Below are positions 1,586 through 48,986 of a DNA stretch of 64,000 nucleotides, one piece after another; within the stretch, counting starts at the first letter, position 1, and every line of letters starts with the position of its first letter. The stretch is from contig CAWBMV010000001.1 in NCBI GenBank assembly GCA_963789955.1, forward strand, positions 192,001 through 256,000. The letters are read 5' to 3'. Source of the DNA: an uncultured Candidatus Rokubacteria bacterium (GTDB lineage Bacteria; Methylomirabilota; Methylomirabilia; Rokubacteriales; CSP1-6). The notes below the pieces were generated by a model. It made no database searches, had not been told where the DNA came from, and saw nothing but the letters and a program-made list of their open reading frames with translations. The position numbers and the translations under genes are program-made.

Positions 1586-2309
1586 TTACGAAACCGCTCG
1601 GGCCGGAACGCCGCGGAGCGCGAGGAATCGCCGGGCGAGCGCCGGCCCCGAGCCCGAGTCCTCGTGCTTGAAGAAGACGTAGGCGTCGCACCACCCGGCC
1701 GCCGACCTGATCGATCGTCGCGATCCAGCGGCGCAGATCGTCGTCGCAGTATTCCACGGCGCGGAGCCGGACGTAGCCGAAGTCGGCCGTCGCAACCGCG
1801 GGTGTCGTGCCGTCCTCGGTGTCGGCGATGCAGAGCGCGGCGTTGCGCGAGCGCAGCAGCGCGTAGACCTCGTCGTCGAACCAGCTCTCGTGCCGGAACT
1901 CGAAGGCCACCCGGAATCCGTCGGGCACGATCGGAGCACGTCGGCCGAGCCGATCGGCCGCCTTCTTGAAGTTCGGGGGGAGCTGGAAGAGCAGAGGGCC
2001 GAGCTTGTCGCCGAGGGTGCGGGCCGCATCGCAGAAGTGGCGCAGGGGCTCGTCGACGTCGAGGAGCCGGCCGAAGTGCGTGATGCGCTGGGGCGCCTTG
2101 AGCACGTACGTGAACCCGGCCGGCGCGGCGGCGCCCCAGCCTTCGACGGTCCTGGCACTCGGCATGCGATAGAACGTCGCGTTGATCTCGACGGTCGTGA
2201 AGCGCTCCACGTAGTACGCGAGCATCTTCGACGCCGGGAGCTTCTCGGGATAGAAGGTCCCCCTCCACTCCGGGTAGTTGTACCCGGACGTCCCGACGTG
2301 CGTGTTCAG
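1586..2309 (-). CDS. DUF72 (YecE-like) protein, frameshifted near the C-terminus
   Basis: [51 protein letters not shown]-terminus AYVFFKHED is in another frame ending at 1586. Probable CTG start overlapping the ald TGA. Confidence 0.85.
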
Positions 2310-45170: not shown

Positions 45171-46106
45171 ATCGCGGCAGCCCGCTGCGCGACGTCGCCT
45201 TCTACCTGCGCGGACGACTCATCAAGCAGCTGACTCGGCTGGCCAGCGCGCGCGACCGAACCCCTCCGGTGGTGCCCGGCGCCGCTCGACGAGGTCATTC
45301 GCGGCGGGCGGGATCCGCTGGCGCTCTCGCGCCTGCTCGAGGGGAGATCGAACGCGGAGCGCGAGTCGGCGGTCGCGCGCTATCTCGGCGCCCGCGGGAT
45401 TCCGTTCGCCGTCCATCGCTTCGCGTCGAGCGAGGGCTCGGGCGACAACTTCGCCGTCGATCTCGGCGCGGGTGATCGCGTCCTCCTGCTCGCCGCGCAT
45501 CACGACGCGGTGGACGCGAGCCCGGGCGCCAACGACAACGCCGCGGCGGTCGGGATCTTGCTGAACCTGATCGAGCGCCTCGCGGCCTCGCCGCCGACGA
45601 AGCTCCGCCTGAGGTTTCTCTTCACCGCGGCGGAGGAGCGCGGCTATCTCGGCGCCCGCCACTACGCGCGCGAGATCGACGTCGCGGAGCTGGCCGGCGT
45701 CTTGAGCCTCGAGCTGTGCGGCATCGGCGATAGCGTGGTGATCTGGGACGCGCCGGACGCGACCCCGTTCCTCGACACGGTCAGCTCGATCCTCCGGAAC
45801 ATCGGCCTCGCGCGGGACGAGGGCCATCACGTCGTCGGCCGCATTCCCATGTTCGGCAGCGATCATCGCGCGTTCGCGCCGCTCGGGGTGCCGGCGTACG
45901 GGTTCACCCTGGTGCCCTCGGCGAACGCGGAGGCGCTGCGGCAGTTCGTGTTCAGCCCGGTGCGCAGCGCGATTCGTCACCTGATCCGGCGCCCGGTGCC
46001 GTTCGACACGTATCACACGCCGCGCGACCGGGGCAGCACCCTCGAGCCGCAGGCGCTGGCGCTCGCGCTGCGCGCGCTCGAGGCCGTTATTGCGGAAGTG
46101 GCGTAG
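45167..46106 (+). CDS. M28-family metallopeptidase, frameshift ~45270
   Basis: AAHHDAV, PGANDNAAAV, FTAAEERG, SDH, YHTPRD. Confidence 0.85.
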
Positions 46107-46383
46107 GCGGAGTCGTCGCGAGACGGAAGAGCAGGCGCCGGCTCAGCGCGGCTTCACTGGCCGGGACGAGGACGACGACCTCGCCCTGACCGCCGACGCT
46201 GAACGGATAGACCGAGTGAGCCAGCCGTGATCGCAGCAGGGTCGGGATCCCCTGGCTCTCGAAGAGTCCTTTGAGGACCAGCGCTTCCGCCTGATCGCAC
46301 CGGCGCACCTCGACCAGGCCGCGTTCGCCCCCCGGGTCCCTGGGGAATTTCGGAAACGGGATGACCTTCCCGCGCATCGACAT
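46087..46383 (-). CDS. DUF2007-like small protein
   Basis: EALVLKGLFESQGIP...GEVVVLVP.SEA..SR.LL; TATACT 7 nt upstream of the ATG. Confidence 0.75.
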   Translation of the reverse strand: MSMRGKVIPFPKFPRDPGGERGLVEVRRCDQAEALVLKGLFESQGIPTLLRSRLAHSVYPFSVGGQGEVVVLVPASEAALSRRLLFRLATTPPTPLPQ

Positions 46384-46930
46384 TGCAGTGAGTATAATCC
46401 AAGCCCGCGACCTGTCCACCAGCGCCGCCCACAGCCCGAAAATCGAGGAATTTCGGGGCGTCACGTCTGCCCTGTGCGGGGCTGTCCGATAGTGAACACG
46501 GACAAAACACGGACAAGCGGGCCGCGCACGTCGGCTTGCCGAGAAACCCGTCGGGTGCTTCAGCACGCTTGCCCTGCGCGCTTCCTGCCGCATCTTCACG
46601 GCGATCGTCCGCGAGACGGAAGGGCAACGCCCAAAGCGGCCGTGCGTCGTTCTAGACGCTAACGCGGCCGGCGAGCGACGTTCTCCACTTGGAGGTACGC
46701 CGTGATGAAACCGGCTGCGCCGGGCTGCATTCAGGTGGATCGTTGAGGAACGACCCACGAGGCTACGGTGTCTCGGCTCGCTGGGCTGGATCTGGAGTAA
46801 GGTCCGACCCGCATCGGCGCAGAACGCGGACGGCCTACCGGACCCCCATGCGCTTGACCGGTGCGCGAGCGGGGTCAGCTACATCGTGACTGCGGCGGCG
46901 CGCGCCTTGAACGGCCGGCGAGAGTCGCGT

Positions 46931-47185
46931 CTAACGCAAGCGCCCAGCACCCCCGGCCAGTAGGAGATCACGAAGCTTCGCCACCTGTTCGGGCTCGAGG
47001 TCGATAATCGTTGTGAACCGGTCCAGCGGTCCGAGAACTTCGTCAGCCAGGCCCGCCGCTTCTGCTTGATCGCCTCGACACAGAATCACGAGCGCCTGAT
47101 GGCAGGTCTCCCAATTCGCTGTGATGGCCTCGAGACCCGTCGGTGGGGCGTCAAGGCTATAAGTCGTCCCTTGAATGCGATGCAT
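46931..47185 (-). CDS. Hypothetical cargo protein (~84 aa)
   Basis: Plausible composition (MHRIQGTTYSLDAPP...AKLRDLLL); inside the element; no family recognised. Confidence 0.45.
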   Translation of the reverse strand: MHRIQGTTYSLDAPPTGLEAITANWETCHQALVILCRGDQAEAAGLADEVLGPLDRFTTIIDLEPEQVAKLRDLLLAGGAGRLR

Positions 47186-47526
47186 TGTGAGAGTGTTGGT
47201 GTTCGCGTTACGAGCTGTGCGTTGCGAGAGGGACATTCGTCGTTGGCTCCTTGCAGGTTGATCACCAAGGCCAACGTGCAAGTGCTATACCTCGAACGCG
47301 CCTAGCGCAAACGCAGCAGTTTCGGGTTCATCCGCCGCGGCTCGACTACGAGGCGTCAGATCGAGATCACTTGTGTTCGATTGATGAACGGAAGAGGGCA
47401 TCTTCCTTCGAGCACGTGGCGAGGGGGATCAACACCGAGCAACCGCACAAGTCGCTTGCGGCGCGATCCCTGCGGCAACGTCGTCAAGCCGGCCGATCTC
47501 GACTACGCTGACCGTGCGGAGGTGAA

Positions 47527-47733
47527 GTGATGTTGAGTGAAGGCTACCAAGACGGGTTCCGCGACGGCTGGTCCGATCAACGCGACGGGCGGAAGCCGAG
47601 CACCGTGCCAACGAACGACTACTACGGCCAGGAGTACCGCCGTGGCTACGAAGAAGGCGCTCGCGCCTACGCGCAGCGCCTTGAAGGCCGCTCCGAACGC
47701 CGCTCCACTGCGTCCCGCGATGAGGTGGCGTGA
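47527..47733 (+). CDS. Small hypothetical protein with GYxDGFxDG / YRRGYEEG repeats
   Basis: Strong SD GGAGGT at 47518-23; this repeat pattern is typical of small phage/MGE proteins. Confidence 0.6.
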   Translation: MMLSEGYQDGFRDGWSDQRDGRKPSTVPTNDYYGQEYRRGYEEGARAYAQRLEGRSERRSTASRDEVA

Positions 47734-48086
47734 TGTTCTCGTGCAAGCAGACCGCCATGGCGGGATGATAGCGCCGATGGGGTTCAGGCTCGCTTCACGC
47801 TGACTTTCTCGTAAGACCCCCACAGCTTTACCTCAGTGACGCCAGGCTGATTCACTCGCTGCACCCGTATGTGGGTGTTCTTGCCATCAGCGGCAGGCGC
47901 TCGGGGCGGCCGAGGCCTATCGTGCCCAGCGGCGGGCCGGCCGGGTGACACACCTGAACACGGACAAAAGGCGGACAGCGAGGCGGGCGATCCGTTCGTA
48001 ACAAGCTGATTTTGAATAGTTCAGAGCGCGACGGTCGATTCACAACGAGTATAATCCATGCGCATGGGGCCGCGCCCGTCCACGAC

Positions 48087-48986
48087 GTGAGCCGGGCGAG
48101 CGTCGGCGTCGTCGTCACGTGCCCGTGCGGCGAGGTGTACGAGCTACGGCCGGAGTACGCGGGCCGCCTCCTCGAGTGTCCCGCCTGCCGCCGGCAACTG
48201 CGCGCCGGCCCCCCGCCGAACACCCCGCGCCCGCCGACCCCCGGCGTCGACCGCGCCTTCGATCGCGACGTGTTCCTGTTGCGCCAGCGCGTGTTCACGA
48301 TCACGTCGAAGTACGAGATCTGGGCCCAGGACGGCACGCCGGTGCTCTACGTGGAGCGCCCGACCTATCCGATCCGTACGCTCGTGGCCTATCTGCTCGC
48401 GGTCATCGTGGTTCTGACGATCATGGGCGGCGCGGCCAGGGCCATGGCGCGGGATGACAGCGGGCTGATCGTCCTGCTCTCCGTGCCGGTGGCGGCGTTC
48501 ATCTTCCTGGTGATCTCGATGTCGCTGCGTCCGCGCCGCCACGTGACGATCTATCGCGACGAGTCGCGACAGGAGACCTTGCTCCGGGTGATCCAGGATC
48601 AGCGCGTCGCGTTTCTGACCAGGACCTATACGGTCGTGACGCCGACGGGTGAGACGCTCGCGCTGCTGCGAAAGACGTACCTGCACAACCTCATTCGCAA
48701 GCGCTGGTACGTCACGGGCTCCGGGGGCGAGGCCCTCGCGATGGCGATCGAGGACTCGATCGTGCTCTCGCTGCTCCGGCGGATCCTCGGCCCCTTCTTC
48801 GGATTCCTCCGGACGAACTTCGTGTTCGTCCGCGGCACGGACGCCGAGGTCTTCGGCGAGCTCAACCGCAAGTTCACCTTGCTGGATCGCTACGTGCTCG
48901 ATCTGTCGGCCGACACCGCGCGCGCGTTCGATCGGCGCGTGGCCGTGGCGCTCGGGATCATGCTCGACACCGGCGAGCGCCGCTGA
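48087..48986 (+). CDS. Zn-ribbon + 2TM + scramblase/LURP-one-like protein
   Basis: CPCG...CPAC ribbon; FLLRQR...KYEI...LYVE; DRYVLDLS.D...DRRVAVALGIMLD. Confidence 0.65.
   Translation: MSRASVGVVVTCPCGEVYELRPEYAGRLLECPACRRQLRAGPPPNTPRPPTPGVDRAFDRDVFLLRQRVFTITSKYEIWAQDGTPVLYVERPTYPIRTLVAYLLAVIVVLTIMGGAARAMARDDSGLIVLLSVPVAAFIFLVISMSLRPRRHVTIYRDESRQETLLRVIQDQRVAFLTRTYTVVTPTGETLALLRKTYLHNLIRKRWYVTGSGGEALAMAIEDSIVLSLLRRILGPFFGFLRTNFVFVRGTDAEVFGELNRKFTLLDRYVLDLSADTARAFDRRVAVALGIMLDTGERR

Follow-up and report, generated by a model that had tools for sequence, protein, structure and literature searches.

A segment of 1.67 kb at positions 46390-48058 of the window, which is the whole 64,000-nt stretch of a Candidatus Rokubacteria contig analysed here, is bounded by short direct repeats and shows the layout of tyrosine recombinase attachment sites. 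The question is whether such a segment is a minimal mobile element or what is left of a larger one. The earlier note on this DNA had regarded it as a minimal element without an integrase, moved by an integrase in trans. We conclude, with a probability of about 85%, that it is the remnant of a larger island, which a lambda-like integrase inserted into a 12-bp core and which later lost the integrase by deletion while keeping its att ends. Directly observed were the empty site, the duplicated core, a piece of the integrase gene and its deletion junction, together with longer alleles of the locus. The two ends consist of the following parts:

46390..46401, plus strand: left att core GAGTATAATCCA, with TATAAT on the plus strand (46393-98) and TATACT on the minus strand (46396-91); single copy in empty alleles
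46441..46453, plus strand: left IHF-like site, weak, two mismatches; AAAATCG..G.ATTT kept in four left ends
46482..46490, minus strand: inverted arm-like half-site (CTGTCCGAT on the plus strand) of putative role, kept in four left ends
46495..46516, plus strand: left tandem arm-type site, AACACGGACAA twice with an 11-bp period; the tandem also bounds an intact tRNA-Leu island of about 46 kb
47957..47978, plus strand: right tandem arm-type site AACACGGACAAAAGGCGGACAG, within the last integrase codons; next to 34-46% identical integrases it lies outside coding sequence or in different frames
47999..48011, plus strand: right IHF-like site, one mismatch, its first triplet being the integrase stop codon; perfect match at the homologous end of genome G015
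48047..48058, plus strand: right att core, TATAAT at 48050-55, then an ATG 8 nt on

Direct search of the window confirmed the coordinates of all motifs that had been described before. The 12-bp direct repeat (46390-46401 and 48047-48058) occurs twice in the 6.77-Mb assembly, counting both strands, each time in 46390-48058, while 0.07 copies are expected from base composition. The 11-mer of the left tandem has three copies in the assembly, all within the same segment, with 1.0 expected on the same basis. A 15-bp stretch is common to both tandem regions (at 46493 and 47955). The distance between core and tandem is 93 nt on the left and 90 nt on the right, and the GC content of the element is 62.9% compared with 68.3% for the genome. 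Both IHF-like strings were also found at their places, but they are unequal: the score of the right site is reached by 0.27% of random 80-nt windows of contig C1, and that of the left by 3.5%. The consensus used for scoring is that of E. coli IHF.

Insertion at this place is shown by relatives. In a congener (G004), the two flanks match those of the window at 92-93%, and the 12-bp core is precisely the stretch in which they overlap; this is the single-core empty site that the earlier note had predicted. An imperfect inverted repeat surrounds GTATAAT in this empty site, and it points to a putative 7-bp overlap of that sequence at the core. The same joint, 46389 to 48047 with 1657 nt skipped, was present in contigs of two of four soil runs, X1 and X5, which come from different studies. 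Run X1 also holds contigs that begin at the core and span most of the element interior, so empty and filled states probably coexist in that sample. There was no coverage over 47931-48041 in X1; therefore the junction at 47886 is not established for its filled allele. No circle junction was seen in the contigs of the four soil runs, where assembly drops rare forms and so cannot prove absence.

The interior of the element contains four recognizable features:

46931..47185, minus strand: possible cargo ORF of 84 aa (116 aa if started at an upstream TTG); searches gave no relative
47527..47733, plus strand: cargo ORF of 68 aa, in a 368-bp block 96% identical to G000:C34:915768-916135 (G000 is the genome carrying the window)
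47784..47886, minus strand: 3' end of a small gene, 33 codons, 5' part deleted; longer copies on contigs C34 and C37
47886..48001, plus strand: 3' remnant of a tyrosine integrase gene, last 37 codons and stop, recognized by C-terminal identity to P0005 and P0004

The last of these reads QRQALGAAEAYRAQRRAGRVTHLNTDKRRTARRAIRS and a stop codon from 47888 to 48001. It is identical to the C-terminus of the full-length, 387-aa integrase P0005 in 32 of 37 residues and to that of P0004 in 27 of 37. These 37 codons start downstream of the catalytic Tyr motif. Because the right tandem sits inside them, with the integrase stop codon as the first triplet of the IHF-like site, the description of the element as integrase-less needs correction. 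The deletion junction of the remnant lies at 47886, where it runs into the 3' end of the minus-strand small gene with 1-nt microhomology. The source contigs of P0004 and P0005 are short, and the target of these two integrases was deduced from C-terminal likeness to the window and to the metagenome allele L058.

None of the interior ORFs scanned gave a family above cut-off. The 84-aa ORF was absent from all 158 other family genomes and had no Pfam or PHROG match, with a best Atlas score of 0.76; the 68-aa ORF had Atlas matches of 0.85 to hypothetical proteins, which is a lead only. The small-gene block recurs in G000 at C34:915768-916135, C37:29789-29894, C20:49205-49275 and C34:934092-934190 with up to 96% identity, and it is likely shuffled island cargo. 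A non-coding stretch of the left-end interior (46555-46796) has counterparts of 74-75% similarity at G015:C6:17034-17261 and G000:C34:247416-247543.

Alleles at the same site in relatives form a deletion series. The longest, L058 from a metagenome, is about 10.0 kb and has both tandems and a frameshifted integrase gene from residue 129 onward. The allele of G011 (4.8 kb) retains roughly the last 70-100 integrase codons, and HDLRR and SGH..RY are still recognizable; its left tandem is gone and the right one is reduced to half. In G006 (3.4 kb) both cores are present without integrase and without either tandem, and G013 keeps a left stub only; the left ends of these two, the most eroded, retain about 30-35 bp. 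In G003, G005, G007, G010 and G016 there is a single core with a short spacer. G014 and G015 carry other inserts without these ends; that of G014 (L033:1450-7370) is unrelated, measures 5.9 kb and encodes an ABC transporter, with part of a second TATAAT at the right end. G002, G008 and G009 were excluded from the site table, since the core lies outside their available sequence. A complete left end with tandem and IHF-like site was also seen at another locus with another core, followed by an IS-like gene (L037:4305-4418, on G006:C136).

A tree built from the host flanks joins G000 with the empty G004, and L058 with G006, as sisters, each at 100/100 support, and the pair of G004 and G000 is nested in a clade of mostly filled hosts. 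The element ends of G000 and G011 are 93% identical (83/89 and 139/149), whereas their flanks are 84-86% identical. Between IHF-like site and core, L058 and its host sister G006 share only 33 of 49 positions. The ends do not track the host tree, which suggests, from these short alignments, that related elements were inserted repeatedly. An intact parent was found neither in 159 family genomes at close identity nor in GTDB with peptide patterns, and the search among viral sequences gave one distant match. At 14 metagenome loci, where L055-L063 appear to be one population and were counted once, the integrase genes were truncated, frameshifted or cut by the contig end. No intact integrase gene was seen in place at the promoter site among the alleles examined.

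The tandem motif belongs to a widespread integrase family. Scanning GTDB for it gave at least 120 matches in many phyla, with one more in IMG/VR. For neighbour counts, the 95 of 121 listed loci with at least 300 nt on both sides were used. Among these listed matches, an integrase 3' end lay within 200 nt upstream on the same strand at 41 of 95 loci and a tRNA within 200 nt at 54 of 95; 63 had one or the other and 32 had neither. Some of those 32 may be far ends of islands (such as L103), and others may be chance matches. The distances from tandem to tRNA cluster at about 70, 81, 90 and 103 nt, a spacing of roughly one helical turn. An IHF-like site with at most one mismatch followed the tandem at 32% of 118 listed loci compared with 2-3% in shuffles and control windows, and the genome of the window encodes five HU/IHF-family genes. 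Integrases 34-46% identical to P0005 share the tandem, which lies beyond the stop codon in L067 and is read in a different frame in L069; therefore it is not a product of coding constraint.

As positive control, the locus pair L103/L121 on a Binatia chromosome (OZ252051.1) is an intact tRNA-Leu island of about 46 kb that has a 54-bp direct repeat, encodes a full integrase and shows the AACACGGACA tandem at both ends in the same orientation, like the window element. Its repeat ends 104 nt before the left tandem, close to the 93 nt in the window, and its integrase is homologous, with 43% identity to P0004. Islands of this type keep the integrase and use tRNA genes, whereas the subfamily of the window uses a promoter-like core or, in other genomes, the 3' end of a DUF72 gene. 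L103/L121 was the sole control used, because L162/L169 (tandem twice on one contig) had no repeat in the arrangement tested and L143/L148 had a 14-bp repeat only. Among 34 listed tRNA-adjacent tandems with at least 1500 nt upstream, 12 had a full integrase, eight a partial one and 14 none; some of these 14 may be far ends of islands. Integrase loss beside a kept tandem is common in this family. The AACACGGACA tandem marks the island ends of an integrase family that is widespread among soil and sediment bacteria, and it can serve even where the integrase is gone.

The P0004 model has a pLDDT of 90 and starts with three strands (8-12, 15-21, 27-31) and a helix (47-62), and the arm-binding domain of tyrosine recombinases is described as three strands and a helix (PMC8138268). 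Its best Foldseek matches are full-length lambda Int, with TM about 0.57 and rmsd 8-14 A; these values are for the whole chain, not a separate superposition of the N-terminal domain. Of the catalytic R-K-H-R-H-Y residues, in P0004 numbering, R207, K232, H308 and R311 are invariant among 100 relatives and H334 and Y343 are conserved in at least 90% of them; in P0005 a Ser replaces the Tyr. The gene upstream of the integrase in the intact relative L053 matches excisionase family phrog_66 (E 0.00022), and its counterpart in L052 gave no match. A three-domain integrase with an Xis-like gene upstream is also found in lambda and arm-binding recombinases (as outlined in PMC4880445 and PMC8138268), and the putative 7-bp overlap, the distant arm sites and the candidate bending sites between follow the lambda scheme presented in PMC4880445. 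Unlike the lambda sites described there, the element has two tandem arm pairs with an 11-bp period, one of them inside the 3' end of the integrase gene; the arm sequence is unrelated, and protein identity in the fold match is about 15%. We infer that the tandems are arm-type sites which this integrase family would bind, and the lambda-type layout of core, IHF-like host-factor site and tandem arms read by the earlier note was supported.

The core lies between two divergent host genes, as matched with the non-tRNA target supposed before. The features around it are:

46087..46383, minus strand: DUF2007-like host gene of the left flank (PF09413, E 0.00093, below the curated cut-off)
46413..46418, minus strand: -35-like TGGACA supplied by the element, 16 nt from TATACT; predicted hybrid promoter of the left gene
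48064..48090, plus strand: 8-codon host ORF, putative leader; ATG 8 nt after TATAAT, TGA overlapping the GTG of the next gene
48087..48986, plus strand: host gene of the right flank, about 300 aa, with N-terminal Cys motifs and hydrophobic segments; start placed from relatives

In 13 of 13 alleles the minus-strand TATACT is followed 7 nt on by the ATG of the DUF2007-like gene, and GAGTATAATC is kept in all 13 tabulated alleles, filled or empty. The conserved 8-codon ORF is possibly a translational leader, and the right-flank gene gave no family above cut-off. Across the genome, ATG starts of long ORFs are concentrated 6-9 nt downstream of TAnnnT hexamers (18 of 93 TATAAT sites, and likewise for TAGAAT and TACAAT), and control hexamers show no such peak. 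Because of this peak, leaderless starts behind a -10 box look normal in this organism, which suggests that leaderless transcripts are frequent in it. Judged from sequence, the divergent genes would share the core as a two-way -10 box.

The history of the remnant may then be pictured as follows. The parent would have carried xis and int followed by attP, and was likely inserted between the two divergent host genes by its own lambda-like tyrosine integrase. In this scheme the integrase would hold the 11-bp tandem arms with its N-terminal domain. A protein of the IHF/HU type would curve the DNA from arm to core, and the strands would be exchanged over about 7 bp, GTATAAT. With the core duplicated, each host gene would therefore keep its own -10 box and start site. 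Because the core is a predicted two-way -10 box and was duplicated, the insertion would be tolerated, much like insertion at the end of a tRNA gene. An internal deletion would then have removed all of the integrase but its last 37 codons. Such a remnant cannot excise itself and would need a cognate integrase, acting in trans or inserted alongside; excision by an incoming cognate integrase is possible. The remnant is ordinary as such, and it illustrates how an apparently minimal att cassette can arise by deletion.

The rival idea that this is a streamlined non-autonomous element, kept since it still excises and re-integrates with an integrase in trans, is improbable in our opinion. It would explain why no att part is missing from either end: the two tandems and the two IHF-like sites survive, and the deletion ends a short way from the right arm, an outcome that selection for mobility would also give. 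Empty and apparently filled alleles occur within one soil run (X1), and the empty G004 is sister to the filled G000 in a mostly filled clade. Integrase-less islands moved in trans do exist, as the account of the microcin H47 island shows (PMC3191183). Like the window element, H47 has no recombinase of its own and has direct repeats at its bounds; however, its excision and integration are reported there from experiment and its repeats are long and imperfect, whereas the window core is 12 bp. The window element also contains an integrase remnant, unlike H47, and is known here from sequence alone. The remnant tail and the deletion series speak against an element designed to move in trans, and sister alleles lose their arms at varied points. 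Moreover, X1 does not establish the 47886 junction, and the missing circle joint is weak evidence in the same direction. The helper itself was looked for in the window's own genome, which is 87% complete in this assembly and has ten PF00589 matches. The earlier note had proposed to find the tandem beside an integrase elsewhere in the genome, but the three long matches are only 28-33% identical to P0004 and P0005, and other sequences instead of this tandem follow each gene. Neither element end occurs a second time in G000.

Two minor observations belong to this search. A similar lone tandem at C36:129547 was rejected as helper locus, having no tRNA within about 2.5 kb and no integrase-profile match nearby. 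Short integrase fragments are present at G000:C1:523198-523311, C37:200362-200711 and C1:72342-72413, consistent with many decayed islands.

We give hardly any credit to the idea that the repeats are due to chance, or that a promoter box was duplicated around an unrelated insertion with the right tandem as mere coding sequence. A promoter-like core could be duplicated otherwise, as in the unrelated insert of G014, and the right tandem does lie inside an ORF remnant. But the empty sites are exact and an integrase remnant is present, and next to distant integrases and tRNAs of many phyla the tandem lies outside coding sequence or in different frames. More weight, though still on the doubtful side, goes to an addition to the remnant reading: the host may keep the remnant for its left-end -35, which would alter expression of the DUF2007-like gene, while the rest decays. 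TGGACA with TATACT is the sole promoter-like match in 46300-48150 (10 of 12 positions). A 5/6 match at the 16-nt spacer is found in 5/5 element-bearing left ends, and 8/8 other alleles have at most 3/6; the background is 23 of 614 for -10-type hexamers and 98 of 20000 for random positions. Even the most eroded left ends (G006 and G013) include the hexamer. However, the five alleles are related and so not independent, the test was devised after the scan result, and deletions from inside naturally spare the outermost bases. A weaker form occurs in the left end L037, which has no -10 core. TGGACA could instead be an inverted arm-like half-site (GGACA). Because the alleles are kin and the hexamer resembles an arm half-site, the hybrid -35 is a lead only. 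The rightward gene has no -35 box, with at most 3/6 matches. Should the added -35 box prove active, a host gene would be rewired by the island.

Returning to the remnant of an integrase-inserted island, its structure allows it to be classed as a CIME, a known kind of remnant: attL and attR are kept, there is no functional integrase or transfer gene, and it arose by deletion from a larger element; this class is named by structure and does not imply an ICE or IME as parent. Classical streptococcal CIMEs, according to PMC5704250 and PMC7563491, span 1.2-13 kb, and they too are deletion-derived, having lost integration and transfer genes with attL and attR kept; the 1.66 kb of the window element is in this range. 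Unlike the streptococcal examples given in these papers, it stands alone without an ICE or IME in tandem, belongs to a soil bacterium, and has an intergenic promoter-like core as target instead of a gene 3' end.

Narrow open-access literature searches gave no direct report of a promoter-box att core, though TIGER/Islander tables may list the target, and no direct report of integrase islands in Rokubacteria. Islands at the 5' end of dusA reportedly also have a tyrosine integrase and a conserved non-tRNA target, with cores inside the coding sequence; the window core is instead between divergent genes on a predicted -10 box. If this target is right, it is a second harmless use of a conserved site besides restoring a tRNA end. 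A bolder and rather unlikely reading is that a tRNA-type integrase subfamily switched to a two-way -10 core, where insertion, decay and excision would act as a host promoter switch and remnants would persist for it. That insertion would split the divergent promoter, with both genes staying transcribed and the leftward gene gaining a -35, is a part of this reading that we hold to be just as speculative.

A second target of the same integrase subfamily is present in the window as an empty site (1661-1675), at a DUF72 gene (PF01904, about 1704-2252, minus strand). An element end replaces the 3' tail of this gene in G001, G002, G005, G006, G008, G013 and G015, seven of 14 genomes of the genus in which the end of the gene was visible. 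Compared by eye, the promoter and DUF72 targets showed no clear shared core-type consensus. Integrases of this subfamily are about 80% alike and have different non-tRNA targets, which offers a handle on specificity change. Genes of more distant integrases (L072-L082) are followed by tandems of differing sequence, with repeats of the CGCACA-, CGGATA- and GGGCAAAG-type among them, which suggests that the arm sequences change with the integrase.
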